Below are positions 1,250 through 29,765 of a stretch of 32,000 nt of DNA, in pieces. A program made the position numbers and the translations under genes. Every line of letters starts with the position of its first letter. The stretch's first letter is position 1. The DNA comes from Candidatus Lokiarchaeum ossiferum (GTDB lineage Archaea > Asgardarchaeota > Lokiarchaeia > Sigyniarchaeales > Promethearchaeaceae): NCBI GenBank assembly GCA_025839675.1, contig CP104013.1, positions 570,001 through 602,000 of the forward strand. The letters are read 5' to 3'. Under the pieces are notes generated by a model, which searched no databases, had not been told where the DNA came from, and saw nothing but the letters and a program-made list of their open reading frames with translations.

Positions 1250-1255
1250 TTCAAT

Positions 1256-2806: not shown

Positions 2807-3787
2807 ATGACATCTTCCTACAAACCGATCATCCTCAAAGCACTACTTCATAATGTGAAGAACAGCAAGGGGATTCATAAAAATAACATTATCCTAATCC
2901 CAATAGAGAACATTGTTGAATATTTTTTCAAGTTTAATTATGCTCTAATGAAACGTTATCGCTTGCAACAACTGAATAATCGGAAAAGCAATGTGGTAAT
3001 TTACAAAATAATTGACAAATTCTACGGGAATGAATCAGGATTAAAGACTCCCAAAAAGATAGCTTCTAAAGCTTTGAAGAAAACGCGAAACTTACTTTTT
3101 CGACATGTCTTATTTCTCTTAAGAGCCGATGCCCACATCTATGATTTTTTCACAGAAGATCAGAATAAAATGGATTTACCATCCCAAATAAAAAATGAAA
3201 GAGAATTTCAAGAACTTTTAAGGAAAACAAATTCAGAAATAAAAGATATTACCTACTTAGGGATAAATCGAGACATCCATAATTTTATGCTTCGGCAAGC
3301 ACCCATCCTCGAAAGTGCTCTACTCGCTTTACTGGTGCAATTTTTAGAAAAAGTGAATACGGTGCCGAATTTAAGCCAAAAATTGTTAGTAGCAACTGAA
3401 GAATATCACTTCCAACGGAATATTCCCGAAGGGGAAAAACAGCGTCTCTTTGAATATCAACAGGATATTTGTTTCTATTGTGGAAAAAAGGTTGACCCTC
3501 AGCAAGAAAAGATGCAAGCAGATCATTTCATCCCCTATACATATATTTTTGAATCTCAGATCTGGAATATTGTAGGAGCATGTCCTCAATGCAATTTGAA
3601 GAAATCCAATAGAATCACTCAAGAAACATACTTAGATAAAATAGTTTCTAGAAATCGAGATCCTGCATTTTCAGCTCAATTTTTTAAGCCGTATGATCAA
3701 TCCGAATCATCGATAAAAGCCCTAAATATCTTATTAGAAAATCTATACATGAGTTGTAGGATCTATTTCAAATCAATTGATCTCTAA
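2807..3787 (+). CDS. HNH endonuclease with an unassigned N-terminal domain of about 200 aa, possibly a DNA or modification reader.
   Basis: The C-terminal HNH motif is CFYCGKKV...ADHFIPYTYIFESQIWNIVGACPQCNLKKSNR (Cys pairs plus DH...N...N). The N-terminus starts with SYKPIILKALL, a motif I recall from N-domains of McrA-like HNH restriction proteins. That recollection is unverified. Confidence 0.8.
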   Translation: MTSSYKPIILKALLHNVKNSKGIHKNNIILIPIENIVEYFFKFNYALMKRYRLQQLNNRKSNVVIYKIIDKFYGNESGLKTPKKIASKALKKTRNLLFRHVLFLLRADAHIYDFFTEDQNKMDLPSQIKNEREFQELLRKTNSEIKDITYLGINRDIHNFMLRQAPILESALLALLVQFLEKVNTVPNLSQKLLVATEEYHFQRNIPEGEKQRLFEYQQDICFYCGKKVDPQQEKMQADHFIPYTYIFESQIWNIVGACPQCNLKKSNRITQETYLDKIVSRNRDPAFSAQFFKPYDQSESSIKALNILLENLYMSCRIYFKSIDL

Positions 3788-3918
3788 TATTTCTACAAAA
3801 TTGCTATTTATGATACACGCAAAAAATAAATATCTGAAGAAGACTGCAAGCGATTGATTTTGAATTTATTTCTCTTCTTACTCCTATCTGCCCAATTTTT
3901 TTGAAAAAAATTTATTTT

Positions 3919-4794
3919 CTACAATTCCAACTCAAAAGCTATTTCATTTTTATGATAATTGAGAAATTCTATCTTCAATTTATGATCATCTAAAACTGTA
4001 AGTAATTTTGGCTTAGTTATTCCCATTATCTTAAGATTTGAATCTATCCAAATCGCACCATTATCAAGTAAAACATGATGATTGGGACATAAACACAACA
4101 TATTATTTACTTCATCAGGACCATTATGAGGTTTCCCAAGAGGTTTAATATGAGCCGCTTCTGCATAAAATAAATTATCTCCCTTTAATTTTAATTGAAT
4201 ATTACAAATTTGACATTTGAAATCATATAATTCCTTAATTTCTCGAATATTCTTTAGTTTTCGTTTTATCCTTGAGGTTGTAACTATAGTTCTCCCTGGT
4301 ATGGAGATAGAAATATCTGATTCTTGAACAGGAGTATCATCTATTATTTCAAGATTATCCATTGCCTTATGTAATTCAAATCTCCAAATTATATAACCCG
4401 CTTTTCCTCTTTCATTCCAATAATTTTTGACATAATATAAACCATCATATCTATATCCTTTTCCTTTACCCAATGACCGAGTAACTCTTACCGGGAGCTC
4501 AAAGATCATAGATTTTGCAAGGGCAAGATTCTGTCGCTTTAATAATTGGTCCGCAATCTGTTTACCGGTATTTTCATCCCTACCACCATGTCCGGTATAG
4601 ATAATGATATCCCCATAATCTTCGTCATCCTCATATCCTCCAGAAATAACAATGGAATCTGCACCTTCAGATTGGGCACCGGTAATGCCAGCTCTTTTAT
4701 TCATGTGGATTTTTTTGTCATATAGAGCATCTCTACTTGAAAATTTAGTACCAACATCTATTCCAGGGATATGTCCAAATATTCTTTGAGTCAT
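3919..4794 (-). CDS. SRA(YDG)-HNH Type IV restriction endonuclease, expected to depend on 5-methylcytosine or 5-hydroxymethylcytosine.
   Basis: The N-terminal SRA/SAD pattern is FGHIPGIDVGTKF..R..L....IH......GI.G....GADSIVISGGYEDDEDYGD.IIYTGHGG...YRYDGLYYV. The C-terminal HNH is CQIC....AEAAHIKPLG..HNGPD...NMLCLCPNHHVLLDNG. Confidence 0.9.
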   Translation of the reverse strand: MTQRIFGHIPGIDVGTKFSSRDALYDKKIHMNKRAGITGAQSEGADSIVISGGYEDDEDYGDIIIYTGHGGRDENTGKQIADQLLKRQNLALAKSMIFELPVRVTRSLGKGKGYRYDGLYYVKNYWNERGKAGYIIWRFELHKAMDNLEIIDDTPVQESDISISIPGRTIVTTSRIKRKLKNIREIKELYDFKCQICNIQLKLKGDNLFYAEAAHIKPLGKPHNGPDEVNNMLCLCPNHHVLLDNGAIWIDSNLKIMGITKPKLLTVLDDHKLKIEFLNYHKNEIAFELEL

Positions 4795-14403: not shown

Positions 14404-14770
14404 TAATAATTTAGTAACTTTAGAAATCTTTCATTTTTATATTTAAAAATCAACCTTTCCAAGATTGGGTGGTGCGTTACTCTTCTATTGATATGAATTT
14501 CTGAACTTTTGCAAAATGCGCATGATACACACGATGCACAAGATGCATGTACATCGATCGTTTAAAAAAATATAAATCTTTTGATATAAAATTCATGATA
14601 TTTTAAATAATTGTGAAAATATTCCCGAAATATTGACAAAAATTGCTCTTTTTTTTTATCAAATTACGGTTGGTCAAGAGAACGAACAATGAAACACCCT
14701 TAATAGATGAAATGATCCTTAATAATTATAAAAAAAATAATGAATAATTTAATTTGAAAAATAGTTCCTA

Positions 14771-16903
14771 TTAACCATTTTCGAGTTCATGGACATAAGG
14801 ACTCGAAGATAGAATATCTAGATTAGAACAAAAACTTTTGATAATATCATCTCGTATTGCCTTCAACCAAGTTTGAGATATATTAACTGCATTTTGGATT
14901 TGATTGACATGTGTTGCAAAGATTGCCTTTAACTTTACGCGATTATTGAAAAGTTGTAGAAACTTTTCTGGAAAGATGAGTGTGAGCAAAATATAACTTT
15001 CATTATTGGACCGAGACGAAAGCTGACTTGAATCATGGGCAATTGTAGTATAAATAAAAGCACGCAAATCACGATTTCCAAATGGTAAGACCCCAAATAA
15101 ACCAGTATGATATGATCCACCTTGTCCCAATGTAGTTGCGTAGATGCTACCACAAAGCACTAGTTCAGCATGCGTCGTGGGATCGTCCCCAGCAATATTC
15201 ACAGAATTTAGAATCACAGGGCCCATTTTTTCATCCACTTTATAAGCGACCAAAGAAATTTCCTTCACATCCCCATTTTCAATTCGATTATATGATAAAC
15301 CAGGAGAATTTAAGGATAAATGATCTTGAACAATGGTTAATAGCATCTGCTGATTGGGTGATACAGCAGTCTTTGAGGTAAGTTCTGCACCATCAGTTAA
15401 TTTTAAGAATCCCTCAACTAATTCTCGTAGATTATCCAAGTTTTTTTGAATAGTTATAGATCGTAACTCTAAATAAATCTCTTTTGCTTCTTTTTTCTCA
15501 TTTTTCAATAATTTCAATAATCCAAAGATGATTTGGACAGAAATAAACTTAGGTATTAGACCCTTTTCTTTAGTAAACATACTCAATTCATTAATGATTT
15601 CAAGGGCTTCGGTGAAGTAATCTTCTTTTTGAGTTTTTTGAAACTGTGAAAGGAGGTTCTGAGCAAGAAGAATTTTAGCATTAAATTGGATTTCTATATG
15701 ATTACTTTTAATTCCATGATGTAAAGCTCGTTGAAGACCTAATTCTACTTCATGGTAAAGACCTCGAGTTAGATCCATCTTTGCTTTTACAATCAATATC
15801 TGTGCAAAAGATACCCTCGATTCACATTCAAGAGCCATTTTATCAGCCTTTTTTAGATAAAAATATGTTTCCTCAGAATATCCAAGAGTATTCCATATTT
15901 CTGCAGAAAGAATACAAAGATCAATAACACTATTATCAATTTGATATTGATTTGCCAAGGCATTACTTTTTTCTATCATACCAAGGGCTTTCTGATAATT
16001 TCCTTTAAATATCCATATTTTAGCATAGATATAGTAACTTTTGATTATTTGATCAGTATATTGTGTTTCAAGAAACATTTCCAACGCTTTTTCAATTAAT
16101 TCTTGAGCATTATCAACGTTTCCAATTTCTAAGGAAAATTTTGCATAACTTTTGTTCAACAAACCAATAGTCATTTTATCCGAAATTTGGTTTGCAATTA
16201 AAATTCCCTCTTCATATGCTTGTTTAGCCTTTTCAAATTCACCAAAAAGGTACCAAATATCACCAAGATTATTTAGAGAAATGCTAGTTCCACGATTATA
16301 ACTATTTTCTTTGCTGATCGTGTAGCATTGATTATAACAGTTTTCTGCCTGTTTCAAATCTCCTAAAAGTTCATAATTTAAAGCGACATTATTATAATAT
16401 CGAGCAGCCATGTATTTCTTTTCAGGATAAGATTCTACTTGGGATATTAAATCATTACCCAATTCAATTGCATCGTGATATTTACCTAATCGATGCAAAG
16501 CCACAATTTTTGTATTCATTAATTCCAAATATGCATCAAATTGCGGAGTAATGGAAATCAATTTCTCTGCTTTGTCAATTATTTTTAGGGCTTCTAAATT
16601 GTATCCTAATGTTTGTTTAAAATCTGCCATAACAGCGAGAGCTTTGATTTCTACTTCTGGAAAATTTAAGGTTGACAAAATTCTGAGAATGGCATCTAAT
16701 TCATCAATTGCTTGATTGACTTTGCCATCGCGAGCTCTTAAAGAACACTGTAAAATTTCAGCGCGATATTTGTATTCTTTTGAGATATTTTGCGAGAGTA
16801 ATCCATTCAGTAGAATTTCTGCTTCATTTGGGGATGTATCAATTTTAATTTTTATTTTTTTTATCTGAGATTCAATTTGATTACAATCCATGATGAGCAC
16901 CAT
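14771..16903 (-). CDS. TPR-repeat protein (about 500 aa of TPR-like helical repeats) with an unassigned C-terminal alpha/beta domain of about 190 aa.
   Basis: 34-residue-type repeats with A/Y/G/L signatures recur, such as YYNNVALNYELLGDLKQAENCYNQC, LNNLGDIWYLFGEFEKAKQAYEEG and YIYAKIWIFKGNYQKALGMIEKS. The C-terminus is non-repetitive: ISLVAYKVDEKMGPVILNS...GSIYATTLGQGGSYHTGLFGVLPFGN...SYILLTLIFPEKF. Confidence 0.8.
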   Translation of the reverse strand: MVLIMDCNQIESQIKKIKIKIDTSPNEAEILLNGLLSQNISKEYKYRAEILQCSLRARDGKVNQAIDELDAILRILSTLNFPEVEIKALAVMADFKQTLGYNLEALKIIDKAEKLISITPQFDAYLELMNTKIVALHRLGKYHDAIELGNDLISQVESYPEKKYMAARYYNNVALNYELLGDLKQAENCYNQCYTISKENSYNRGTSISLNNLGDIWYLFGEFEKAKQAYEEGILIANQISDKMTIGLLNKSYAKFSLEIGNVDNAQELIEKALEMFLETQYTDQIIKSYYIYAKIWIFKGNYQKALGMIEKSNALANQYQIDNSVIDLCILSAEIWNTLGYSEETYFYLKKADKMALECESRVSFAQILIVKAKMDLTRGLYHEVELGLQRALHHGIKSNHIEIQFNAKILLAQNLLSQFQKTQKEDYFTEALEIINELSMFTKEKGLIPKFISVQIIFGLLKLLKNEKKEAKEIYLELRSITIQKNLDNLRELVEGFLKLTDGAELTSKTAVSPNQQMLLTIVQDHLSLNSPGLSYNRIENGDVKEISLVAYKVDEKMGPVILNSVNIAGDDPTTHAELVLCGSIYATTLGQGGSYHTGLFGVLPFGNRDLRAFIYTTIAHDSSQLSSRSNNESYILLTLIFPEKFLQLFNNRVKLKAIFATHVNQIQNAVNISQTWLKAIRDDIIKSFCSNLDILSSSPYVHELENG

Positions 16904-17269
16904 TATATTATGTGGTTAAATTAAACTCAAGTTAAAATTTTAAAAATCTAACTGATTGATAATTGAATTTGAATTATTTTTTTTTGATTCTCCTACCACT
17001 TCTGTCTTATGGTAAGTTTACAGGAAATGGATGGTAATCAACCAAAAAATTCACTCTATAGATTGGTTTACTCAAATGAAAATGAGTTTAATCTCTGAAA
17101 AGGGAGAAAATCAAGCTATGCGAGAAAATATGTTCTTTCATTAAAAAATCGAAATGTACACTTCATGAAATTTTATCGAATTATTAATGATAGAAGTTTT
17201 TCTTGTATATCATAGGTTTTTAGATGAACCTATGGGGGAAAGCAAGGAAATATAGAGTTCAAAAAAGGA

Positions 17270-17692
17270 TTAGAAGATAGATTTGAAATTAGCCACCATT
17301 TTTTCATTTTTATTGAAGAAATACTCAACCAATTTTTCAAAACCTTCAAATTGAGCAAGATTTCCATTCCATGCCAAAATATCACTCGGGGCAAATTGAG
17401 TTTTAAAAATTTCAGAGATCTCATGGAGCATTTTGTTCATGTTTTTCCGTTTCCGAGTATGAGTGCTTCGAGCTACAATCGTAGTCTTATAAGGAGCAAG
17501 ATAGAGACTCATTAAAAAATTCTCACCCATTGTAATGTCATCTATCGCAGTATCGGAACATTGTCGTCCAAATTGATTGATGGCGGTGAAAAAACTTCCG
17601 AAGAGCAAGGGATTCATCTTGCTATCCACGGCATAGTTAAACATACACGATCCTGCTTCATTTAAAATCCAAAGTTCATCTAATTCATTCAT
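17270..17692 (-). CDS. Small longin/roadblock-like alpha/beta domain protein, 140 aa. The family assignment is tentative.
   Basis: The pattern is LWILNEAGSCMFNY......NPLLFGSFFTAINQFGRQ.....IDDITMGENFLMSLY.....IVARS....... then a helical tail with W.G....F. It resembles small regulatory domains associated with GTPases in archaea. This is recognised from memory, not from a search. Confidence 0.45.
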   Translation of the reverse strand: MNELDELWILNEAGSCMFNYAVDSKMNPLLFGSFFTAINQFGRQCSDTAIDDITMGENFLMSLYLAPYKTTIVARSTHTRKRKNMNKMLHEISEIFKTQFAPSDILAWNGNLAQFEGFEKLVEYFFNKNEKMVANFKSIF

Positions 17693-18323
17693 AGTGGGAA
17701 CCTAAAAAATTATTTTTTTTTAGAAAGTCTTAATGAGATATTCGAGCATGGTTATTTATTTGTCATTTCTCGGAAACATTGCAATACAGTTTTGATCAAT
17801 TTTTTAGACAAAAGAGTATTTTTTAATGCTTTCTGAGGGTTATTTATATTGTGTTATGTAAAAATATAAATCTAAGCAAAAAAACTGAAGTAGGGAAAAC
17901 AGATGGCCCATTTTGCAGATTTGACGGATTCAACTATACAGTGTATTGGAATTTACAAATTTGAAAATAATAGTTCAGTTTTGCAAAAAAAAATTTCCTT
18001 TAAATAAGTACAACCAAATCCAACAAACATGCTTATCGTTCCTTTGAGTTAATTTACCACAAATTTTCCAAGTCCAACGCCAGCATAAAAAACAAATATA
18101 ACGAATAAATTATGCAGAATTGACAACCAAAATAATATAGATGTGGTATCTTAGGATTAATGGTTAATAGCACCGATCCACTTACCACAAACTATAAGAA
18201 AAATTCATTTAAAGTCAATAAATAACTTCAATTTCCTATTCCTTAGGAAAAGCGAGATAATAACAACCTTTTTTAAGATAATTCCCCAGATAATGTTATT
18301 AATGATAAAGGAATGAAAAAAAA

Positions 18324-19895
18324 ATGACAAGTTGTATTAGATGTAAAGGTACGGGAAAGTGTAAATTTTGCCTTGGTACGGGAAAAAAAGGAAGGCTCGA
18401 TTGCATGCATTGCAATGGAACTGGAAAATGTAATTTCTGCGGAGGGATAATCGGTAATAACTCCCAAGGATCATTCAATATCCCACAAGAAAATTTTGGA
18501 GGAAGACAACAAAGTGCTTCACCATTTGAAACAGCAAAATCAATAGTAGGGATGGCAATTGATAAACTATATTCCAATAATCCAATGGATCGAAGAGACG
18601 GAATTAAAATGCTTAATAGTCATGATGCATTTCATGAAAGATCTGCAGCTCTTGGTCCTGCGATTCAGATATATCCAAATGAAACAGATCTAGAAGTTAA
18701 ACGAGGGTTGTTGCAAGTAATTTCTTTCGGATGTGTACGTTCAAAGGATTCCAATGCATATGCAATTTTATCATCGGCTCTAAATGATGAGGATATGATT
18801 GTTCAGTTTACTGCAATCCAAGGATTGGTAAATTTTGGTGAACAAGGAGCGATTGCCCTTCCAAAAATTCGTGAATTATATTCCAACCCTTCAACCCCAA
18901 GTGCGATTAAGCGATCCTTAATGCGAAGTATTTCTGAAATGGGAACTGTTGCTGAACCAGTTTACAGTATTATTACAGGAGAATTAGCAAGTACTTCATA
19001 TTTAATGCGAAAAGCAACTAAAAATGCCGTGAAGCGTTTACGAAAGAAGGGTGTAAACATGGTTGGATATTTGATTAAACAACTTGAAGTTGGAGATTCT
19101 GACCAAAAAATTTCAGCTTGTGAAGGTTTAGGTAGTATGGCAAAGGATGCAGCGGCAAGTGCAAGTAGTTTAGGAGAACTTCTAAACGATGAATCCCCTG
19201 GTGTGCGTGCAAAAGCAGCTTGGGCATTATATAAGTTAGAAAAAAAAGCAGCACCTGCGGAAAAAGCACTAAAACAAGCTCTAAATGATGAGTCTTCTGC
19301 TGTTCAGAAATATTCTCTTAAGTGTCTTAAAAAATTGAAAAAGCTAACGAAAGAACTAAAAGAAGAAATCAAGATGTTGGAATCTCTTGATAAGGAAATG
19401 AAACTCTGGAGAAATAAATTCATTTCGATCTATCCTGAACCTTCAACAAAGGATCAAGAAGAAAATAATACTTCTGGAACTAATGAACAACAAATAAAAA
19501 ATGTGTTTTTTATGAGCCATGCCCTACCCGATTTTCCATGGGTGAAAAAGTGTATGGATGTAATTGAATCATGGCCTGGTTGTCGCGTATGGACTTGTGA
19601 ACGCGATATTCCTGTTGGAGGAGATTGGTTAGAATCCATTTACAACGGTCTCGAAATCTGTTCGTGGTATCTACTGTTTTGGAGTGACCATGCTGAAAAA
19701 TCAAAATGGACAAATGAAGAAATTCGAGAAGCAAAGACACGACAAGTCGCCAATGAAAAACCTCATATCAGCGTCATTAATTTAGGGAAAGAAGATTGGC
19801 CAATTCTGTTGTCTCGATATCAGGGAACTGTGATGAAATCAGATGAGGATGTTGCTACATATTTGGCAAATTTAAAAACCCAAGTAGAATTCTGA
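18324..19895 (+). CDS. Multidomain TIR protein. It combines an N-terminal DnaJ-type zinc finger (4x CxxCxGxG), HEAT/PBS-lyase-like repeats, a coiled coil and a C-terminal TIR domain.
   Basis: The zinc finger is CIRCKGTGKCKFCLGTGKKGRLDCMHCNGTGKCNFCGG. The HEAT repeats include LNDEDMIVQFTAIQGLVNFG, LNDESPGVRAKAAWALYKL and LNDESSAVQKYSLKCL. The TIR is VFFMSHALPDF.W......IES.....VWTCERDIPVGGDWLESIYNGLEICSWYLLFWSDHAEKSKWTNEEIREA, with S460-x-W462-x-x-E465 (the E codon is at 19716-19718). Confidence 0.85.
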   Translation: MTSCIRCKGTGKCKFCLGTGKKGRLDCMHCNGTGKCNFCGGIIGNNSQGSFNIPQENFGGRQQSASPFETAKSIVGMAIDKLYSNNPMDRRDGIKMLNSHDAFHERSAALGPAIQIYPNETDLEVKRGLLQVISFGCVRSKDSNAYAILSSALNDEDMIVQFTAIQGLVNFGEQGAIALPKIRELYSNPSTPSAIKRSLMRSISEMGTVAEPVYSIITGELASTSYLMRKATKNAVKRLRKKGVNMVGYLIKQLEVGDSDQKISACEGLGSMAKDAAASASSLGELLNDESPGVRAKAAWALYKLEKKAAPAEKALKQALNDESSAVQKYSLKCLKKLKKLTKELKEEIKMLESLDKEMKLWRNKFISIYPEPSTKDQEENNTSGTNEQQIKNVFFMSHALPDFPWVKKCMDVIESWPGCRVWTCERDIPVGGDWLESIYNGLEICSWYLLFWSDHAEKSKWTNEEIREAKTRQVANEKPHISVINLGKEDWPILLSRYQGTVMKSDEDVATYLANLKTQVEF

Positions 19896-19976
19896 TTTAT
19901 TTTTCTTATAAAATTTTTTCACTATTTGCTTAATGTAAACCTCAAGCTTTTTTTTCTTTAAAGGAAATCTCTAGTT

Positions 19977-21515
19977 ATGAGTCGAATTTCCATCATAGGG
20001 GGAGGTTTAGCAGGATTAACCGGTGGAGCATTTTTAGCCAAACATGGACATCACGTTCAGATCTTTGAACAATTTACCGAATTAGGCGGAGTTGCAGCCA
20101 CAATAACTCAAGATGGATACAAATGGGATATTGGCCCACTGCTTTTAGAGGGGTTTGGCCCCAATGAGCTGGTTCGTAATATATTAGAAGAACTAGATTT
20201 AATGCAACAACTCCGAATTGTGAAAGAGGATCGCGGGTTGAGTACACCTGACTTTACCTTCTGGCGCCCGAAAGAATATCAAGGATTGTATTGGCGTCGA
20301 GAAATGTTACGTAAACAGTTCCCAGACCAAAGCACCAATTTAGATCGCTATTATCGATTCTATGTGCGAATGATTCGAATTGTGACCTTATTCAAGCAAT
20401 CAGAAGAAAGTCAAGGCCTAAAAAAATATTGGTTGAAATTGCGCCTACTACTTACAGCCTTACCCATAAAAAAAATGCAAGAATGGAACGCCACGCAGTT
20501 ATTAGATCACTTTTTTTCTAATGAAAAAATCAAAGGAATGCTTGCGGGGATATTAGCCGATTTTGTTACCCGTCCCAGTGAATTTCAGGGAGTGGGAATT
20601 CCAATGGTGAATATTGAGACTGCCTTTGATAAACGTATTCCTCTTGCAATAGATAAGCATACGATTCAACCCCAATACAATTATATCATTGGAGGCTGTG
20701 GGGAGATGGTACAATTGTTGGTAAAATTTATCGAAAATCATGGAGGATCATTCCATACAAATTCAAAAGTTCAGAAAATCCTAATAAATCAAGATATAGC
20801 TGAAGGAATTCGATTAGAAAATGGTGAGGAAATTGAAAGCGATATTGTTCTAGCAACCAGTGATATTTTTTCAACTTGTAATTCCTTAATTGGAAAAGAA
20901 TTGTTACCAAATTCAACACGACAATATTTGACGGAAATAAAATACATGGAATCAGTATTTATGGTTCATATTGGTGTAGACTTTGATCCCACCCCTTACC
21001 AACCAGCTGCATTATGTTATTACTATGGAACCTATGATATTGAAAATGCAGTGGAAAAAATTAACAACGGGATTTATCATGAAGGCGCTGATGGATTTCT
21101 GATCTATATCCCATCGATGCACTCCTCAGAGATGGCCCCACCTCATCATCATGCGATTACGATCTACACAGTGGCCCCAAACCACATTAAAGGTGGAGAT
21201 TGGGAAACTCAAAAAGAAGTTCTTGCCGATAAATTACTTGAATATGCAGAAAAAACCATTCCTGGATTACGGAAACATACGAAAACGCGCATAATCATGA
21301 CGCCTATTGATTTTCGAAAACGAATAAACGTCCACCACCATAGTTTTGGAGGTCTACCTCCCATTATGGGTCAAAAAGGATTTGCACATCAAACTCCTAT
21401 TGGAAATTTATTCTATGCGGGATGTCAAAGTGAAAGCACAGGAGGAATTGCTAATACAATGAATGGTGGAAAGAAAGTAGCCCGGATTATTGATAGGTAT
21501 TTGAAATCGAAATAG
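19977..21515 (+). CDS. FAD/NAD(P)-dependent oxidoreductase of the phytoene desaturase (CrtI/CrtD) / amine oxidase superfamily.
   Basis: The N-terminal Rossmann motif is ISIIGGGLAGLTGGAFLAKHGHHVQIFEQFTELGGVAAT. The length is 512 aa, and the C-terminal motif LFYAGCQSESTGGIANTMNGG is typical of the family. Confidence 0.85.
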   Translation: MSRISIIGGGLAGLTGGAFLAKHGHHVQIFEQFTELGGVAATITQDGYKWDIGPLLLEGFGPNELVRNILEELDLMQQLRIVKEDRGLSTPDFTFWRPKEYQGLYWRREMLRKQFPDQSTNLDRYYRFYVRMIRIVTLFKQSEESQGLKKYWLKLRLLLTALPIKKMQEWNATQLLDHFFSNEKIKGMLAGILADFVTRPSEFQGVGIPMVNIETAFDKRIPLAIDKHTIQPQYNYIIGGCGEMVQLLVKFIENHGGSFHTNSKVQKILINQDIAEGIRLENGEEIESDIVLATSDIFSTCNSLIGKELLPNSTRQYLTEIKYMESVFMVHIGVDFDPTPYQPAALCYYYGTYDIENAVEKINNGIYHEGADGFLIYIPSMHSSEMAPPHHHAITIYTVAPNHIKGGDWETQKEVLADKLLEYAEKTIPGLRKHTKTRIIMTPIDFRKRINVHHHSFGGLPPIMGQKGFAHQTPIGNLFYAGCQSESTGGIANTMNGGKKVARIIDRYLKSK

Positions 21516-21569
21516 AAATTGAAAAAAAGTAGAAACTCCGAAATCTAAGTCCTATTTTTAGAACTTTTT

Positions 21570-24161
21570 TTAAGATTGTATAGCATTTATTACACTTGAA
21601 TACCCTAGAGATTTGGCCAGAGCTTCTGCAAATTTGGCACCCAATTTTCGTGATGGCATGTTAATTGAAGCAGCATTTCCTTTATAGGCAGGATGATATT
21701 GATATAAAATATTTAAGGCTGATTTGGGATTTCCAGATTCATTCATCAGTTTTGCAGCACGATAGATAATTGTATCTGCCCATAAAGGTTGAACTGTTAA
21801 TTTTATTGCATCCAAACAAATTAAATAAAAAGAAAGCGCTTTTTTTGGATCACCAGATCGTTCATAGAAAGCAGCTAAGGAACTGGGAATACCATCAGAG
21901 GTGGCTTCAGTTACAACCCCATTACTTAATTCCAAACTTTTTAGAGTAGCTTTTTCACAAAGTGTTATGTCATTCCCCATTTCACTTAAATTTACTAAGA
22001 ACCCACAAAATTTCTGAACAAACCGATCTGATAAATGTTTAAATGCTTTTTTTTGCCAAATATCACAATTTTTCTTCAAATATTTAAAAATCGATGGATG
22101 ACTGGAATATTTTGGTAATTCTCCTCCATCCCACATGCGTTGATATTCCTTCAATCCTGTAGGATCTAACCATTTTGTTCCCAAAATCCATAATGCTAAA
22201 ATCAACATTTCCATCAATATTTCATTGTTTCCCGAATTGTAATAAGAATGATGAAATATTGCATAAAATGGTTCACGTAAAAGATTATCAAATCCCTCTA
22301 ATACTATTGGAGAAAGTTCTTTTTCCTTATCTACACTAATTGCAGATACTAGAGCAAGATATTCTTGTCGCTGGTAAAATCGTTGATACCAAAGAGGTCC
22401 CATTCTCATTAAAGTGATCACTAGTGCTTCCATCTGCTCTTCAAATTTCTTTGGGTTTGAAGATCGAACGACTGCGTTTATTTGTTTTTCAATCAATTTT
22501 TCAATATCAATGGTCATCCCCATTCTAAAATTTTGAGCTGCGGTTGTAATTGTCATCATTTCTTTTTGAAAATCATCCTTAGTTATTTTTCCTGCCAGTA
22601 ATTGATCCTTCAAATCCCGCATCTGCTGTTCATAAGGACGCCAATATTTTTCCTCTGGATGGAGCATATTGGCTAAACTACCTTGAATTTGCATCTCAAT
22701 TGCAGCATCCTCAGAATTTTGAGAGCTAAGCTCTTTATATTTTTGAATAAATTCATAGGATTTTTTTAACGATTCTTCAACCGAGAAAAATCGAGTGAAG
22801 GATCTAAGGTACGAAATAAATGTTGGAAGGTATGACATGTTATCTGTAATTCCAGGATATTTATTTTGAGCAATGGTTTCTTTAATCGCAGGCTTAAATT
22901 TATTCCTAATCCCAGCCAACTGCATATCGATCTGAATCTGCATCAATTTTTGTTGATAATCTTCTAAGCTTATTTCTTTTTGAGCATATTTCTGGCCTAA
23001 TACTGTCATTTGATCAGTAAAATTGTAGGTAATTGCATCAGTATCCTCACTTTCTTCTTTAGATTGTTGAACTACTGCTTGATATCGTTCCGAAAAGATC
23101 ATACTTTGAGTGATGGACAGTCCAATAAGGTGTGATTCAGGAAATTTTTGGACCCAACTTTGAAAATATGAAAACCTATCCTGTTTAATTTTTTGTAATT
23201 GGTCTTTTCCAGCACTTTTAGAAAATATTTTCATAGTAGATCTCCCAATTTTGATGAGTTTATTAGAATTAACCGCTTCTAGAAATCCACTTGGTAGATC
23301 TGTTTCAAGAAATTGTAATTTGGAATAAAATTCCCCAAAAATTTCTTGAAAATCAGGAGTTTTTTCGTCTTTTGATCGGAGATTCCAATATATTTTTTGA
23401 ATTTTTGGCCCAACACGCTTCCAAAATCGACGATAATTGAGATGAAGAAAATCCCATCCTGAATAACCTAAGAAAAGGCAGGGAAAATGCGACAAGAATG
23501 TTTCAAATACATTTGCTTTGGGAGCAGAAAAACCTTTTGCACTTTTATAGGCAGAAGCGACGCTGATAATAGTATTGGGTTGATCAATAGTCCCATGTAA
23601 TTTACAGAGATAAAATGTATTCTTGGATTTTTGCATACCCGATGGAGAAAGATTTTTAATTTGATCAAATACAGTATCATATTCTTTATTGTCAAGAACT
23701 ATTTTGTATTTGACCCCTTCGGCTTTTAGAGCCCGTTCTAAAAAGATATCGAAGTTAGTTGTAAAACAAGCTTTTAAAATACCTTTTTTGGCGAGTTTTG
23801 CAATCATTATATGATTTCCATTTGCGCTCCCTACATCCAAGGCTTTGAACGCGGGATACAATTCATCATCAAGAATTTCAGCAAAGGTTTCAAAAACTTC
23901 TTCAGGATGTCGTTCAGAAGAATTTAAAAGTAAATCAGAAGGAATATCATAGTCTTCGGGAATCGCTTGAAAGAAAGCTTCTAAAATTTCTTCGGTTAAG
24001 GTCCACCAACTTGGAGAACAGCTTGGTTGAGGTATGGAAATTCCGGCTCCACAAAAAGCAATAAAACCATGGTCAATTAAAGGTTCAATTACATCCTTTA
24101 ACGAAGGAAGAGGGGCATGAAGGGAATTATCTTTTTTTTTTTTTATACTCATAAAACTCAT
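21570..24161 (-). CDS. SIR2-like (SIR2_2/DSR-type) NADase-domain protein with a helical, partly TPR-like C-terminal region of about 590 aa.
   Basis: The N-terminal 250 aa carry IAFCGAGISIPQPS, ACFTTNFDIFLERAL (N136, codon 23754-23756), LCKLHGTID (H189) and LFLGYSGWDF, which are the conserved blocks of the defence-type SIR2 domain. The rest is alpha-helical and ends with TPR-like repeats (GDPKKALSFYLICLDAIK..., GNPKSALNILYQY). Confidence 0.85.
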   Translation of the reverse strand: MSFMSIKKKKDNSLHAPLPSLKDVIEPLIDHGFIAFCGAGISIPQPSCSPSWWTLTEEILEAFFQAIPEDYDIPSDLLLNSSERHPEEVFETFAEILDDELYPAFKALDVGSANGNHIMIAKLAKKGILKACFTTNFDIFLERALKAEGVKYKIVLDNKEYDTVFDQIKNLSPSGMQKSKNTFYLCKLHGTIDQPNTIISVASAYKSAKGFSAPKANVFETFLSHFPCLFLGYSGWDFLHLNYRRFWKRVGPKIQKIYWNLRSKDEKTPDFQEIFGEFYSKLQFLETDLPSGFLEAVNSNKLIKIGRSTMKIFSKSAGKDQLQKIKQDRFSYFQSWVQKFPESHLIGLSITQSMIFSERYQAVVQQSKEESEDTDAITYNFTDQMTVLGQKYAQKEISLEDYQQKLMQIQIDMQLAGIRNKFKPAIKETIAQNKYPGITDNMSYLPTFISYLRSFTRFFSVEESLKKSYEFIQKYKELSSQNSEDAAIEMQIQGSLANMLHPEEKYWRPYEQQMRDLKDQLLAGKITKDDFQKEMMTITTAAQNFRMGMTIDIEKLIEKQINAVVRSSNPKKFEEQMEALVITLMRMGPLWYQRFYQRQEYLALVSAISVDKEKELSPIVLEGFDNLLREPFYAIFHHSYYNSGNNEILMEMLILALWILGTKWLDPTGLKEYQRMWDGGELPKYSSHPSIFKYLKKNCDIWQKKAFKHLSDRFVQKFCGFLVNLSEMGNDITLCEKATLKSLELSNGVVTEATSDGIPSSLAAFYERSGDPKKALSFYLICLDAIKLTVQPLWADTIIYRAAKLMNESGNPKSALNILYQYHPAYKGNAASINMPSRKLGAKFAEALAKSLGYSSVINAIQS

Positions 24162-24327
24162 ATCTTGGGAAAAAATGTTTATGACCTAATGATCTCATTC
24201 TATTATTTAATAATTTTGTTTGGATTCCCAAATCAGACCTAAAACCAGAAAAATAGATAGGACTGTTTCATTCCATTTAAGCTGAAAAAATTAAGAATTC
24301 CGCCATTAAGCAAGAAGAAGATTGATT

Positions 24328-24996
24328 TCAATCTAGTGAAAATGGGGATAATTTTACAGCAAACTTATAGAATTTGCGAGAAACATGGCGCATATCATAT
24401 TTCTTCAGATTTTTCCCCGCAATGGATGGATTTTGTCTATCGCTTTGTACTTCATATCCAGTTTGGGCAAAATAAAGATTAATAAGATGAATTAGAAAAA
24501 TATGAAATTTGGGACCGAGGTTGTGACTTCCTACAATGTAGATAAATTTTCCTCTCTTATGGGATTTACATTCATCAAACCACCCATGACCCTTAGGAGA
24601 AAGAATATACTTAACAAAATATTCCGCCAGAATTTCAGGAAATTTGGGATCAAGAAAATTCTCCTTTGGATCCATTTTGGCGATCTCACTCATAGATAAA
24701 TCATAAGATATTTGGGCTAATTCCAACAAATCCTCATCATTGCACCTATCGAATAGGAAATGGAGCATACTTTGAGAAAAAATAGATTTAGGATTATGAT
24801 ACTTTGGGTTCCCGAGATTAAGAAACATAATACTTGAAACAGAATCCCGAATCAATTGAGTTTTAGTAGTTGATACTATTTTTGAATATGTATCTAACAT
24901 TTTATTTGTTTCAGAGTCTAACCGTAAGGATATACGATGATTTGCCTCTGGTTGACTTTCAAATGTTTTTTTTTTTTTAATCTCTGTTTTTTTCAT
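24328..24996 (-). CDS. Ribbon-helix-helix (CopG/Arc-like) domain protein with an unassigned C-terminal domain of about 160 aa.
   Basis: HRISLRLDSETNKMLDTYSKIVSTTKTQLIRDSVSSIM fits the beta-alpha-alpha RHH pattern. The gene lies 166 nt upstream of the SIR2 gene on the same strand. Confidence 0.6.
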   Translation of the reverse strand: MKKTEIKKKKTFESQPEANHRISLRLDSETNKMLDTYSKIVSTTKTQLIRDSVSSIMFLNLGNPKYHNPKSIFSQSMLHFLFDRCNDEDLLELAQISYDLSMSEIAKMDPKENFLDPKFPEILAEYFVKYILSPKGHGWFDECKSHKRGKFIYIVGSHNLGPKFHIFLIHLINLYFAQTGYEVQSDRQNPSIAGKNLKKYDMRHVSRKFYKFAVKLSPFSLD

Positions 24997-25018
24997 TTGA
25001 ATTCACAGGGTTTCTAAA

Positions 25019-25030
25019 CTTGCATGCAAG
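25019..25030. promoter_or_regulatory. Perfect 12 bp palindrome CTTGCATGCAAG, flanked by AA/TT, upstream of the RHH gene. It is a candidate operator.
   Basis: It lies 23-34 nt upstream of the RHH start codon (24996). It is GC-richer than its surroundings, and RHH proteins commonly autoregulate through inverted repeats. Confidence 0.3.
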
Positions 25031-25191
25031 GTTTAAATTAAAGGATCTTAATTAGAAGATTTATTTATATATAATTTGGCATATAATTCTATTTAAATAA
25101 CGATCATCTTTAAATTATATTCTATCCCTAAAAAATTAAACTAATATTTTTACAGCATTAATTTTAAGATGTAGAATAATGAGTGATGTAA

Positions 25192-27246
25192 ATGGATACA
25201 TATTTAGATAACAATAAAGAAATCGAGGAAAGAGCGTCAGATTTACTACTTAGAATGACAATAGAAGAAAAAATTCTCCTTTTGCGAGGTAAAGACTTCT
25301 GGACAACGAATTCCATCGAACGTTTAAAAATTCCCTCCTTTGGGATGACGGACGGACCCTTGGGTGTAGCAGCTCATTCAAGTTTCAAGGGAAAACGTAC
25401 TCGTTTCCCAGCGACAATTGGGTTGGCTGCCACGTGGAACAAAGAATTAGCCTATCAGATGGGAAAGGCTATTGGTAAGGAAACGAAATTGGCAGGCAGA
25501 CATCAAATTCTAGGACCTGGGGTTAATCTAATTCGATCTCCTTTATGTGGAAGAAATTTCGAATATTTGAGTGAAGATCCAATCCTTTCCTCAGAACTTG
25601 GGGCAGAATTGGTCAAGGGAATCCAATCAGAAAAAACCGCCTCATGTATTAAACACTATATTACTAATAATAGTGAAACTAAACGGATGAAAATTAGTAC
25701 CGAAATCAGTGAAAGGGCTCTGCAAGAAGTCTATGTGAAAAATTACAAAAGAATTATTGAAAAAGCTGATCCGTGGGGTTTGATGGTTTGCTATAATAAA
25801 ATTAACGGCACTTACGGTGCAGAAAATAAATATATTCTTCGAGATATTCTTCGAGATCAACTACATTTTACTGGTCATGTAGTAACTGACTGGGGAGCGT
25901 CTCGTGGAGCAGTGGAAGGAGCAGCAGGATGCATTAAAGCAGGATTAAATTTGGAGATGCCTGGTCTTTTCTTGGCCAAAACTTTGAAACCCAAAAAAGT
26001 AATGAAGGCAATAAATGAAGGAAAAATCATAGAAGCTGATATTGATTATGTTGTAAAACCTTTACTCCGTACATTCTTCAGGGTAGGTTTATTTGATCAT
26101 CCAACGCCTAAAACCCAGAAAATTATAGATATTCAAGAACATCAAGCAATCGCTCAAGCAGTTGCGGAAGAGAGCATGGTATTATTGAAAAACGATGGTC
26201 ATATTCTTCCTGTTAACCTTGAGAAAACTAAAAAATTCGCTATTATGGGACCAAATGCAAAAAAAATTTTTGGAAAATATCTACAAGGAGGAAGTTCTGC
26301 CGCAGTTCCCCCTCGATTTGTGACGCCATATGATGGAATTACAAAATTTATTGGAGAGAAGGGAGAAATCGTAGAAGAACCCGAGGATGCAGATATAGTA
26401 TTTTTAATACTTGGATTGGATCATGGAAGTAATATGCTTAAAGCAATGCTCACTAAAATGGAAGGTGATACAGAAGGAAAAGATCGCACTAAATATAATT
26501 TACCTGATGACCAAATGCAACTATTTTATGATACTATCCAACGAAATTCAAATACTGTGGTTATCTTAATTGCTGGAAGTCCGATTGATTGTGCTCCATT
26601 TTTGGAAAAATCCCCAGCCCTTCTCAATGCATGGTATCCTGGAATGATGGGAGGTAATGCACTGGCGAGAATTCTTTTTGGAGAAATTTCACCTTCGGGG
26701 AAACTCCCAGTAACCTTTCCTAAAAAATTGAAGGATCATCCTGCTCATCTCTCGAAAGATCGATTCCCTGGCGATTTAAAGAACTTAAAAATTCATTTTG
26801 ATGAAGGGATTTATATTGGATATCGTTATTTTGATAAAGAGAATGTTGTTCCACAATTTCCATTTGGATATGGGCTCTCTTACACCACATTTGAACTTTC
26901 TAATCTAAGATTAGTTAAAGCACAAATTGCCAGTTCTGGAACGTTCAATGTGTCTGTGGATGTGAAAAATACGGGTTCAATTGCAGGATCGGAAGTAATC
27001 CAGATTTATCTCGCAGATGATGAAGCGACCGTTGAACGTCCTTTGAGAGAACTCCAAGGTTTTGGCAAAGTACATTTGGTTCCAGGTGAAACAAAGACAG
27101 TAATTATCACTTTGGAGAAATCTGCTTTCGAATTTTATTCTGTCAAGGATCATAAATTTATTGCGGAATCAGGAGGTTTTACCATATATGCAGGGACCTC
27201 CTCCCGAGATCTACCCCTAAATATAAATTTGCAATATCAAACCTAA
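25192..27246 (+). CDS. Glycoside hydrolase family 3 beta-glucosidase (BglX-like) with a C-terminal Fn3-like domain.
   Basis: Motifs include MTIEEKILLLRG, GMTDGPLGV, LGPGVNLIRSPLCGRNFEYLSEDP, KHYITNN.E..R, the nucleophile region GHVVTDWGA, and the Fn3-like GSEVIQIYLADD...RPLRELQGFGKVHLVPGETKTV. Confidence 0.93.
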   Translation: MDTYLDNNKEIEERASDLLLRMTIEEKILLLRGKDFWTTNSIERLKIPSFGMTDGPLGVAAHSSFKGKRTRFPATIGLAATWNKELAYQMGKAIGKETKLAGRHQILGPGVNLIRSPLCGRNFEYLSEDPILSSELGAELVKGIQSEKTASCIKHYITNNSETKRMKISTEISERALQEVYVKNYKRIIEKADPWGLMVCYNKINGTYGAENKYILRDILRDQLHFTGHVVTDWGASRGAVEGAAGCIKAGLNLEMPGLFLAKTLKPKKVMKAINEGKIIEADIDYVVKPLLRTFFRVGLFDHPTPKTQKIIDIQEHQAIAQAVAEESMVLLKNDGHILPVNLEKTKKFAIMGPNAKKIFGKYLQGGSSAAVPPRFVTPYDGITKFIGEKGEIVEEPEDADIVFLILGLDHGSNMLKAMLTKMEGDTEGKDRTKYNLPDDQMQLFYDTIQRNSNTVVILIAGSPIDCAPFLEKSPALLNAWYPGMMGGNALARILFGEISPSGKLPVTFPKKLKDHPAHLSKDRFPGDLKNLKIHFDEGIYIGYRYFDKENVVPQFPFGYGLSYTTFELSNLRLVKAQIASSGTFNVSVDVKNTGSIAGSEVIQIYLADDEATVERPLRELQGFGKVHLVPGETKTVIITLEKSAFEFYSVKDHKFIAESGGFTIYAGTSSRDLPLNINLQYQT

Positions 27247-27385
27247 ATGAAACGATTTTTTTCCTTTTTTTGGTGACCCAATGATACTCTGATTTTGAAG
27301 TTCATATATTTCGAATTTAATTGCTAAATTATTGTTAGAGAGCTTATAAAGATGTCTACATTAATCTAAGTTCAGTGATAAATAT

Positions 27386-27853
27386 ATGGAACAATTAGAT
27401 AGCTATTGTGGAATTTACTGTGGTAGTTGTTTTATACGAAAATCTTTAAAGGAAAACGACCGAAAATATATTCCGGAGAAATGGTCATGGATCACAGACG
27501 ATATTCCTTTAGAATGTAAAGGATGTAAGAGTGATACTCTTTTTATCGGCTGTCAACAATGTAAAATTCGGCAATGCGCTAGTAGTAAGAAAATGGATTT
27601 TTGTAATCTGTGTACTGATTATGAAAGTTGTGAACTTATAAAGAATCTTGATTCTCATGCCCATCCTCATCACATCGTAGCGAAAAATAGTTTGAAATTA
27701 ATACAAGAAATCGGCAAAGAAAAATGGTTAGAAAATCAAATAATCCGATGGAAATGTCAAAACTGCCAATATCCATTTTCATGGTATGAAACTGAATGCG
27801 AAAAATGTGGAGAAAAGTTATTTAACTCAACAGAAGAAGCAAAATCATTATAG
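27386..27853 (+). CDS. Cys-rich DUF3795-type protein, a putative metal- or Fe-S-binding protein.
   Basis: The N-terminus is YCGIYCGSCFIRK, with further CxxC pairs (CKGCKS, CQQCKIRQC, CNLCTDYESC, CQNCQ, CEKCG). The arrangement matches my recollection of DUF3795. Confidence 0.6.
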   Translation: MEQLDSYCGIYCGSCFIRKSLKENDRKYIPEKWSWITDDIPLECKGCKSDTLFIGCQQCKIRQCASSKKMDFCNLCTDYESCELIKNLDSHAHPHHIVAKNSLKLIQEIGKEKWLENQIIRWKCQNCQYPFSWYETECEKCGEKLFNSTEEAKSL

Positions 27854-28009
27854 AACAAGTCTTTCATTTTTTCCTAAATTCATAATACTTTCGAATAATA
27901 TGTCGAAATTCAAATGAATAAAATCAAATGTATATTTCGAAATGTTTAAATTATTCCACTACCATATTTTTGATAACACTGTATTGTGATAAAACTGGTG
28001 ATAAAAAAA

Positions 28010-28903
28010 ATGGAAGTAAAATATCGATTCTATGAACCCAATCAAGGGTTAGAGGAAATTCAAGGCAAAATTTATAGTCAAGCGAATAATCGGATAGTAA
28101 CTGGAAAAGAAATCCAGGAACGGTTCGAACGAGAAAAAATTGACCCAAAAACCGTAAGATATGCCTTCACAAAAGACAACAAACCCCTTGCATACATTCA
28201 AGCAAGAGATTATGAAAATGTTGGTGAAGTACACATTGGTCGTGTTTGGGCAATGCCTGAGTGTCCCGAAGAGATAAAAACAACGATGTTCGATGACTTA
28301 TTAACCTATATGAAAGGACGAAAATCTGATTTACGCCTTAAATTCAATACAACGGGTGATCCAGAACAGATTAAATTTGCTGAAGAACGTGGTTTCAAGT
28401 TGGATCAGAAAGTCATTCGATTCACTATCGATAGAGAATCAATTGCTAAGTTTGATACATCAAAATTAAACTATTCCCTTCGAAGAGCTACAATGGACGA
28501 TTTTGAAGAAATTAAAAAATGCTATCTGAAAGCTTTAGGGCACGTTGGAAGAACAGTTAATGAGCAACTTGCAAATTTCTTCAAAACTCAAATTGAGACT
28601 GGGTTTATGTCATTAGCTTTTGAGGGAGAAGAAATGATTGGGGTTATAGGATGTCGAGTTCCTGATTTAACCACTGATAAAGATCGCCCTAAAAACTTAG
28701 GAATTCAACCATTATTTACACTGCTCAAGAAAGAAAATGCTCTCCCAGTTTTAATGAATGCAGCATTAGAAATTGCAGCACAAGAAAAATGGAATCAAGA
28801 TGTCATCCAAATAGGTTTTACGGATGAAAATCCCGATGAAATGGAAATAATGCATGCAATAGCAAAGGAAACAGCAGTCACAGGCATGCAATTTGTTCAA
28901 TAG
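28010..28903 (+). CDS. Putative tandem GNAT-like acetyltransferase-fold protein. The track ORF begins at GTG 27986; ATG 28010 is more likely.
   Basis: There are two halves of about 140 aa, each ending in a GNAT-like beta-strand/helix pattern (..AYIQARDY...VHIGRVWA.PE....I...MFDDLLTYM......L.F......EQIKFAEERGFKL and ..MSLAFEGEEMIGVIGCRV...). The assignment is weak. Confidence 0.45.
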   Translation: MEVKYRFYEPNQGLEEIQGKIYSQANNRIVTGKEIQERFEREKIDPKTVRYAFTKDNKPLAYIQARDYENVGEVHIGRVWAMPECPEEIKTTMFDDLLTYMKGRKSDLRLKFNTTGDPEQIKFAEERGFKLDQKVIRFTIDRESIAKFDTSKLNYSLRRATMDDFEEIKKCYLKALGHVGRTVNEQLANFFKTQIETGFMSLAFEGEEMIGVIGCRVPDLTTDKDRPKNLGIQPLFTLLKKENALPVLMNAALEIAAQEKWNQDVIQIGFTDENPDEMEIMHAIAKETAVTGMQFVQ

Positions 28904-28942
28904 TCAAAAATGTCCCTTTTTTTTGTTATTCTACTTCCGAAT

Positions 28943-29548
28943 TCATTTGTGTTTTTCATTCCATTCTTTTACTTTTTCAAAGAATTCCTGGATCAGAGGA
29001 TGATTTAGATCTACTTTACGCCTTTCAAATCGTTTCTTCCAGCCTGTTTCGACATCTCCAGGGGCAAGTAATGCTTTAAAATCTGTTTTTGTTTGAATAA
29101 AACGTAAGTATCCATCAACGATTTCTTCATTTATTACTTTATCTCCAAAAATTTTATTAACGTGACTAGTAAATCCATAATAATTTCTCATAGGGGCGAT
29201 ACAATTGGTTCGATATCGGAGAACTAAATAATTTTCTTCTAAGCCATTCTTATTGGGGATTTGGTTGGAAGTGTCTTCTGAAAATAACTTTTCAAATTCA
29301 TCGTTCCCATTGATAAAATTATCAAACAAAAAAGTATATAGTGAATATGGTTGTTCGTAAATTTTTTCAAAATCAAGCGTTGAATCAAAATCAATTCGAA
29401 CACAAAAAATTCCTCCTTGTTCTATAATGTTAGCATCTTTTTTGTACAAAACTTCGAAAGCAACTGAAATTTGAGATAAAATCTCATATATTGACATAGA
29501 TTTCTCCAAAGTATGTTCAACAGAAATTTCAAGGAAAGGAGTATCCAT
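28943..29548 (-). CDS. Hypothetical protein, 201 aa, with no recognisable domain.
   Basis: A clean ORF ending in TGA, with composition like the neighbouring genes. Confidence 0.55.
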   Translation of the reverse strand: MDTPFLEISVEHTLEKSMSIYEILSQISVAFEVLYKKDANIIEQGGIFCVRIDFDSTLDFEKIYEQPYSLYTFLFDNFINGNDEFEKLFSEDTSNQIPNKNGLEENYLVLRYRTNCIAPMRNYYGFTSHVNKIFGDKVINEEIVDGYLRFIQTKTDFKALLAPGDVETGWKKRFERRKVDLNHPLIQEFFEKVKEWNEKHK

Positions 29549-29765
29549 GATATCAGTATTAGATCCAGAGTTTAAGAATGTAATTCTTTAAATTAAAAAA
29601 TCAGATTGGAAAAGGGTTAATAGAGAATAAATGAAAAGAAAATGATTGAGGATAATTCCAAAATCACGAAAATCCCTCTTTTTTTCCAATTTACGAAAAA
29701 AATTTATTAAGATGGATTTAAAGATATTTCTAAAACTTTAAAATTCATTTGAGCAATAATGAAAT

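Follow-up and report, generated by a model that had tools for sequence, protein, structure and literature searches.

TIR and SIR2 genes that lie close together in Candidatus Lokiarchaeum ossiferum are probably juxtaposed independent units and not one NAD-targeting system

Do a TIR gene and a SIR2 gene that lie 1.7 kb apart in the genome of the Asgard archaeon Candidatus Lokiarchaeum ossiferum belong to a single immune system that targets nicotinamide adenine dinucleotide (NAD)? A sequence-only reading of a 32,000-nucleotide stretch of contig CP104013.1 (the window; all positions are counted from its first letter) had singled out four genes at 18324-24996, encoding a TIR protein, a flavoprotein, a SIR2 protein and a ribbon-helix-helix (RHH) protein, and had proposed that they were either a new signal-and-effector arrangement or two independent effectors stacked in an island. 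The analysis presented here indicates that this 6.7-kb stretch is probably a set of independent units that came to be juxtaposed on a conserved backbone, and that two of these units are self-contained NADase-type proteins.

The four open reading frames, with the strands and spacings originally read, were confirmed, and they correspond to NEF87_000500 to 000503 of Candidatus Lokiarchaeum ossiferum, so that the archaeal origin that had been suspected was also correct. In homolog searches with three of the proteins, NEF87_000500 (TIR), NEF87_000502 (SIR2) and NEF87_000503 (222 aa) were 100% identical to the window proteins. The 523-aa zinc finger-HEAT-TIR protein (18324..19895, + strand) is followed on the same strand, after a gap of 81 nt, by a 512-aa FAD flavoprotein of the CrtI/amine-oxidase superfamily (19977..21515, +). 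The flavoprotein gene converges with the gene for the 863-aa SIR2-solenoid protein (21570..24161, -), the stop codons being separated by 54 nt, and the gene for the 222-aa protein with a probable N-terminal RHH (24328..24996, -) is 166 nt upstream of the SIR2 gene on the same strand.

Comparison with the closest relative, an 18-kb metagenomic contig (L004) with 81% DNA identity and a SIR2 protein 83% identical to that of the window, separated these genes into a shared backbone and two segments that differ. The backbone contains the DUF3795 gene, the SIR2 gene, the convergent flavoprotein gene (82%), a gene for a 140-aa protein (97%) and a TPR gene (81%), and the collinear blastn blocks cover window positions 14770-16985, 17270-17902, 19939-24231 and 27292-29554. 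No match was found in L004 for the DNA at 17903..19938, made up of the TIR gene and the spacer upstream of it; at this site L004 has ~2 kb with genes for DNA_alkylation, HxlR and 171-aa proteins. The second segment, at 24232..27291, is a 3.06-kb module made up of the 222-aa gene and a GH3 glycosidase gene (25192-27246, +), and it is represented by about 56 bp in L004, which makes it a single indel. DNA conserved between the two contigs extends to 70 nt before the SIR2 gene and 38 nt before the flavoprotein gene, irrespective of the gene found further upstream, a pattern consistent with separate promoters and in favor of them.

The genes were also not found together elsewhere. The SIR2 family alignment was scanned against one genome per GTDB species, which yielded 43 loci, each with as much as 10 kb of flanking DNA. 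When the 25 window proteins were compared with these 43 SIR2-related loci by tblastn, no TIR or 222-aa homolog was found near SIR2, and none of the more than 25 Asgard loci with SIR2 homologs had a TIR or 222-aa homolog within 10 kb. Conversely, the SIR2 gene was absent from all 11 HEAT-TIR loci (L001-L003, L052-L057, L062 and L064). The four genes were therefore never found together in the other loci checked, with no second case of TIR-SIR2 pairing, which by the refuting condition of the sequence-only reading itself goes against a joint system and leaves a combined NAD-targeting immune locus unsupported. The new signal-and-effector arrangement was likewise not borne out, the ortholog neighborhoods being different elsewhere.

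The flanks in the window and the surroundings of the homologs are metabolic or housekeeping in character. SIR2 homologs are found amid shikimate-pathway genes, GH57, GH94 and adenylate kinase, and amid tRNA-splicing endonuclease and molybdenum cofactor (Moco) biosynthesis genes, and the L. ossiferum paralog amid CDC48, RNase III, gelsolin and TFIIB. There was no clustering with recognized defense genes in the window or in the homolog loci, and the nearest nuclease-type genes are weak and 13 kb or more from the locus. The alternative of two independent effectors stacked in an island thus held for the independence of the two proteins but not for the island.

Analysis of the 863-aa protein showed a match to SIR2_2 (PF13289; E 5.2e-15, 56.2 bits against a cutoff of 24.5) and no other significant Pfam match. 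The immune-type SIR2 domain covers residues ~20-300 (23262-24104, -). The defense-type SIR2 blocks that had been read from the sequence, GAGIS (38-42), TTNFD (134-138), KLHG (187-190) and GYSGWD (232-237), proved to be mostly invariant in 28 homologs, in whose alignment G38, A39, G40, S42, T134, T135, N136, F137, D138, K187, H189, G190, G232, Y233, G235 and D237 do not vary. N136 (codon 23754-23756, -) aligns with the Asn replaced in the ThsA mutant structure 8BTO (TTAYD vs wild-type TTNYD), and H189 (codon 23595-23597, -) with the His replaced in the KomC mutant 9V12 (KFAGT vs KFHGT). The GAGxS NAD-binding loop and the catalytic Asn and His are all present, and the protein is a member of the SIR2_2 family of immune-type SIR2 domains (SIRim). 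Its best sequence matches among solved structures were the KomBC SIR2 (2e-9), ThsA, with which it aligns over residues 21-283 including the catalytic Asn, and KomC, while FAM118B matched weakly. Pfam and PADLOC matches did not extend beyond the SIR2 part (residues 24-271); those to the PADLOC ThsA models were weak (E 3e-7) and limited to residues 24-237. In sequence and in fold, the nearest relatives of this domain are the immune NADases KomC, ThsA and DSR2, and not the sirtuin deacylases.

The remainder of the protein, residues 315-863 (21573-23219, -), is modeled as an all-alpha, TPR-like solenoid. An AlphaFold2 model of the full-length protein, built on the family alignment, was confident (pLDDT 87.6, pTM 0.81), with a Rossmann-type SIR2 domain at ~20-300 followed by 26 helices, and so was a model of the C-terminal 549 residues alone (pLDDT 90.8, pTM 0.83). 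Neither Pfam nor PADLOC gave a SLOG, Macro or STALD domain in the protein, in agreement with the absence of SLOG noted from the sequence. The layout had been likened to that of DSR1/DSR2, and in gross outline this stood: like DSR2 of Bacillus subtilis, the protein joins in one chain an N-terminal SIR2 domain of the immune type, with the catalytic Asn and His, to a long all-helical C-terminus, and in a Foldseek search of the PDB with the full-length model DSR2 chains came first (E 6e-8), followed by KomC and ThsA. However, the full-length TM-score with DSR2 was only ~0.22, the PADLOC DSR models gave no match, and the solenoid alone had no PDB match at E<=0.001, with DSR2 absent from the top 50; its best matches were generic TPR and alpha-solenoid scaffolds (PEX5, CNOT10, Naa15 and LGN) at E 0.017 or worse. 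The C-terminus is modeled with confidence as a TPR-like solenoid without a specific match to DSR2, and because the solenoid alone retrieves no DSR2 among its top 50 matches, the description of a SIR2 domain with a helical sensor fits the layout but the protein is not a member of the DSR2 family. The C-terminal HEAT-like sensor of DSR2 binds a phage tail-tube protein. Bacterial defense systems are typically patchy in distribution and borne on islands, while the SIR2 family of the window is conserved across Asgard lineages in housekeeping contexts.

This conservation extends over ~98% of the length of the protein at 33-46% identity, in sequences labeled Lokiarchaeia, Hermod-, Sigyn- and Odinarchaeota. 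Within the family, identity is 50-59% in the SIR2 domain and 30-42% in the solenoid, whose last 160 residues are better conserved. There are two paralog clades, L. ossiferum has one member in each, and the MK-D1 genome also has a family member (P0049). Among 1.84 billion representative proteins, the full architecture was found in ~25 clusters at 50% identity and the SIR2 domain alone in ~4,500, in most cases joined to a different C-terminal region, for example TPR repeats. The divergence of the SIR2 protein from its closest relative (83%) is on a par with that of its neighbors (81-88%), and a search of viral contigs gave just two distant SIR2-domain matches and no member of either NADase-type family. 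In the homolog neighborhood with the tRNA-endonuclease and Moco genes, an IS605 OrfB/TnpB-type gene (L060 180-1508, L061 138-1466) is directly upstream of the SIR2-solenoid homolog.

Full-length homologs of the SIR2-solenoid protein were also found in Planctomycetota and in eukaryotic datasets (proteins P0145, P0063, P0061 and P0070). Three eukaryotic homologs have the full solenoid, from the choanoflagellate Stephanoeca diplocostata, a Paraphysomonas MMETSP transcriptome and another transcriptome, and a homolog from Paulinella micropora has the SIR2 domain only. Some of the longer homologs, partly eukaryotic, have N-terminal extensions of 270-440 residues in which no Pfam domain was found. 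In a crude neighbor-joining tree, the group containing the eukaryotes was sister to the Asgard clades, with the Planctomycetota sequences nearby. Contamination could account for the eukaryotic sequences, and tree artifacts for the grouping. Immune-type SIR2 domains have already been reported in archaea and eukaryotes, fused to TPR-like or NLR modules (10.1101/2024.09.18.613514). A speculative extension, which is on balance unlikely, is that the SIR2-solenoid family is ancient and vertically inherited in the Asgard archaea and that, if the eukaryotic sequences are genuine and the tree topology is right, an Asgard ancestor, and not bacterial defense islands, could be the source of one eukaryotic immune-type SIR2 lineage; CrtI-type flavoproteins might be occasional partners of the NADase-type genes.

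The 523-aa protein matches TIR_2 (PF13676) at residues 395-505 (19506-19838, +; E 3e-13, 50.7 bits against a cutoff of 28) and HEAT_2 (E 1.4e-15), the HEAT array being at residues ~138-360 (18735-19403, +). The N-terminus has four CxxC motifs at residues 1-42 (18324-18449, +), conserved in several homologs, so that the helical-repeat array and zinc finger seen in the sequence are both real and conserved. A catalytic Glu had been placed at E465; the Glu is conserved, but the correct residue is E466 (W462+4; codon 19719-19721, +), which pairs in the alignments with the Glu in Cat1 (WCWDE) and in AbTIR (WTNYE) and is invariant in 16 homologs, one of which has Asp at position 465. These alignments were made with the TIR domain alone, as a profile search of the PDB with the whole family was dominated by designed HEAT and alphaRep proteins. 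By its profile match and its aligned Glu, the TIR domain is predicted to be NADase-competent. The ThsB models of PADLOC gave no match at E<=0.1. The protein lacks a SAM domain, and none of the PADLOC or NCBIfam models matched it over its full length. Weak local matches were found to PADLOC PDC-S66 (1.9e-9) and to the TIR part of the retron-TIR model; membership in the PDC-S65/PDC-S66 systems was rejected, these matches being short and local to the domain.

Homologs of the TIR protein are encoded in metagenome-assembled genomes (MAGs) of Lokiarchaeia and Helarchaeota (43-56% identity, with 53-56% for the HEAT-TIR family among these two groups), and they have the zinc finger and the HEAT array together, or one of the two. 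The combination of a DnaJ-like CxxC zinc finger with HEAT repeats in TIR proteins appears to be restricted to Asgard archaea. No MK-D1 sequence was among the 30 TIR-family matches, no family member was found on viral contigs, and a literature search found no paper on an Asgard HEAT-TIR family. One Promethearchaeota MAG, GCA_054387735.1, holds two paralogs, a HEAT-TIR protein (P0094; L002 9517-10932) and a zinc-finger-linker-TIR protein (P0114; L064 8001-9233), while the window protein combines the zinc finger, HEAT array and TIR domain. A 15-nt inverted repeat (17993-18007 / 19954-19968, 93% complementary) flanks the TIR gene on both sides and lies near the edges of the segment that differs from L004. 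It is a single repeat in AT-rich DNA (32% GC), probably there by chance, and it was rejected as a mobile-element signature.

Each of the two proteins adds a new member to a kind of repeat-fused NADase-type protein that is already known. Like the SIRim proteins (PF13289; KomC, the SPARSA Sir2 and FAM118/SIRanc), the SIR2 protein passes the SIR2_2 cutoff, with KomBC, ThsA and KomC closest, but its family has a 550-residue solenoid of its own, is centered on the Asgard archaea and is assigned to no named system. The TIR protein resembles SARM1 (ARM-SAM-TIR), the bacterial repeat-sensor TIR proteins and PDC-S66 in having helical repeats N-terminal to a TIR domain with a catalytic Glu, and differs in its lack of a SAM domain and of a full-length match to PADLOC or NCBIfam. 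A survey of defense systems in Asgard archaea (PMC11291487) does not mention SIR2, Thoeris or DSR. Each protein would be a self-contained sensor and enzyme from its own conserved Asgard family. In the SIR2 protein, the TPR-like solenoid may bind a protein ligand and so control the SIR2 domain, which would then hydrolyze NAD+ by means of N136 and H189. For the TIR protein, binding or scaffolding may be the task of the zinc finger and HEAT array, and TIR domains that associate with one another would build an active site around E466 and so cleave NAD+. In this reading, the ZnF-HEAT-TIR gene occupies a variable slot beside the flavoprotein and SIR2-solenoid genes, which form a collinear, convergently transcribed backbone pair, and the RHH-like gene, paired with GH3, belongs to a sugar-utilization indel module.

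That the 222-aa gene was part of the NAD locus was not upheld by its neighbors. Homologs, which are 48-55% identical, adjoin an MFS sugar transporter or GH3 in four of four loci: they are divergent from an adjacent MFS sugar transporter in L048, L049 and L050, and in L051 the homolog adjoins GH3, followed by an MFS transporter. In the window the gene is divergent from GH3, and the two are missing together from L004. The recurrence of MFS and GH3 genes beside the homologs places the protein in a sugar module, and the simplest reading is that it is a regulator of that module and not of SIR2, with the family as a candidate sugar-responsive regulator family. Its description as an RHH-domain gene is plausible at the family level, with the RHH probably at residues ~20-55: 9 of 11 homologs match DUF6290 (best 7.9e-5), 4 match RHH_3 (best 9.2e-5) and 4 match the NikA-like model. 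However, the window protein itself falls below the cutoff (DUF6290, E 0.048), and there was no solved-structure match. The C-terminal domain of the family, ~160 residues, is uncharacterized and conserved, with invariant H79, C85, H137, W139, D141 and H158.

The flavoprotein matches Amino_oxidase and NAD_binding_8 in Pfam. It had been called a CrtI-family oxidoreductase, and its FAD superfamily and its position were correct, but against crtI_fam (TIGR02734) it scores 142.9 bits (E 1.3e-41), under the NCBIfam cutoff of 238.1. A PADLOC match to C3a186 covers the FAD-binding N-terminus only and was set aside. Together with its counterpart in L004, it makes up orthogroup FP-A. A second orthogroup, FP-B, 21% identical to FP-A, adjoins SIR2 in L011 (1-468), L012 (2791-4311) and L013 (8191-9711) despite rearrangement, and in L052 (3425-4942) it is 1.9 kb from the HEAT-TIR gene. 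In the ~577 kb of Asgard DNA that was fetched, all six CrtI-like genes were within three genes of a focal SIR2 or TIR gene. A thioredoxin gene is near the flavoprotein gene in L011-L013, and in L052 the flavoprotein gene is between two radical-SAM genes.

Several points weigh against the reading of these genes as independent units encoding two NADase-type proteins. The recurrent adjacency of the flavoprotein is not explained by pure chance juxtaposition. The TIR gene is in a replaceable slot beside the flavoprotein-SIR2 pair and there are nuclease-type genes at window 0.3-4.8 kb, so that a loose clustering of accessory or defense genes is possible. The locus searches were restricted to peptide patterns or word indexes, and with several short contigs among the loci they may have passed over a rare conserved pairing of TIR and SIR2. 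Finally, NADase activity and ligand gating are extrapolated from the biochemistry of ThsA, DSR2, KomC and TIR proteins, and any antiviral role would be putative.

On this last point, vertical conservation and housekeeping context give real weight to the view that neither protein is an NAD-depleting immune effector, and that both are conserved Asgard housekeeping or regulatory enzymes, for example in NAD-dependent protein modification or NAD-derived signaling on a TPR or HEAT scaffold. Both families show conservation from end to end in Lokiarchaeia and further Asgard lineages, L. ossiferum has members of two old SIR2 paralog clades, the homolog loci lie amid shikimate, Moco, tRNA-endonuclease, CDC48, TFIIB and gelsolin genes and not in defense islands, SIR2 diverges at the rate of its neighbors, and neither family was found on viral contigs. 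Nevertheless, this view is considered somewhat unlikely. A repeat sensor fused to an NADase domain is a typical layout in immunity, as in DSR2 and in the SIRim and NLR-like proteins (10.1101/2024.09.18.613514), and the proximity of the SIR2 domain to KomC, ThsA and DSR2 instead of the sirtuin deacylases, and the replaceable slot of the TIR gene, also speak for an immune role.

Less probable still, to the point of being doubtful, is a facultative two-gene module of the SIR2-solenoid protein and a CrtI-type flavoprotein, with the flavoprotein possibly using a nucleotide- or NAD-derived product as its substrate, or else supplying or sensing a redox signal. The retention of the pair in L004, the FP-B genes beside SIR2 in three loci, despite a rearrangement, and near HEAT-TIR in a fourth, and the proximity of all six CrtI-like genes to focal genes favor such a module, but this pattern was noticed post hoc and comes from only two or three independent lineages, and CrtI-like genes are absent from at least 18 further SIR2 loci and 9 further TIR loci. 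In addition, L004 is too close to the window for its synteny to be informative, the genes converge in the window, L004 and L012 and hence are not co-transcribed, and the two flavoprotein orthogroups are distant paralogs.

A Thoeris-like system, in which the TIR protein would make an ADP-ribose-derived signal on infection and the SIR2 protein would sense it and deplete NAD+, with the flavoprotein and RHH-like protein as accessory or regulatory parts, is highly improbable, for although the two catalytic domain types are those of Thoeris, are near each other with their catalytic residues, and include a SIR2 domain weakly matched by the ThsA models, the SIR2 protein has a TPR-like solenoid and no signal-binding SLOG (type I), Macro (type II) or other known nucleotide-sensing domain, the TIR protein is not matched by ThsB models, the two genes converge and each has its own conserved upstream region, adjacency and co-conservation in the manner of thsA/thsB were found in none of the more than 35 other loci, L004 keeps SIR2 with no TIR gene at the site, and the RHH-like gene goes with GH3 and MFS genes.

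The immediate neighbors of the four genes are the TPR, 140-aa protein, GH3, DUF3795 and GNAT genes. Base composition over the locus showed no anomaly, and the window contained no tRNA and no Rfam family. The 140-aa protein (17270-17692, -) has no Pfam match and is 97% identical to its counterpart in L004, where neighboring genes are at 81-88%; in both contigs its gene is paired with that of the 710-aa TPR protein (window 14771-16903, -), and in the MK-D1 locus L015 a homolog and the SIR2 homolog are no more than 10 kb apart. At the other end of the window, a nuclease-type cluster at 344-4794 contains an HSDR_N-like gene (344-1249, +), a gene for an HNH protein with weak matches to PADLOC PtuB and Cas9-HNH (2807-3787, +), and a gene with SAD/SRA (1.8e-47) and HNH_2 domains (3919-4794, -), which is the architecture of a modification-dependent restriction nuclease.

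The value of these results is that of a correction: a TIR and SIR2 neighborhood in a cultured Asgard archaeon is not Thoeris-like and should not be built on as such. Beyond this the yield is modest: the Asgard archaea carry two conserved, uncharacterized families in which a repeat scaffold is joined to an NADase-type domain, with intact catalytic residues and in housekeeping contexts. This raises the question of non-mobile, possibly regulatory roles for immune-type NADase domains in the lineage closest to the eukaryotes, and L. ossiferum, being in culture, is tractable for testing such roles.

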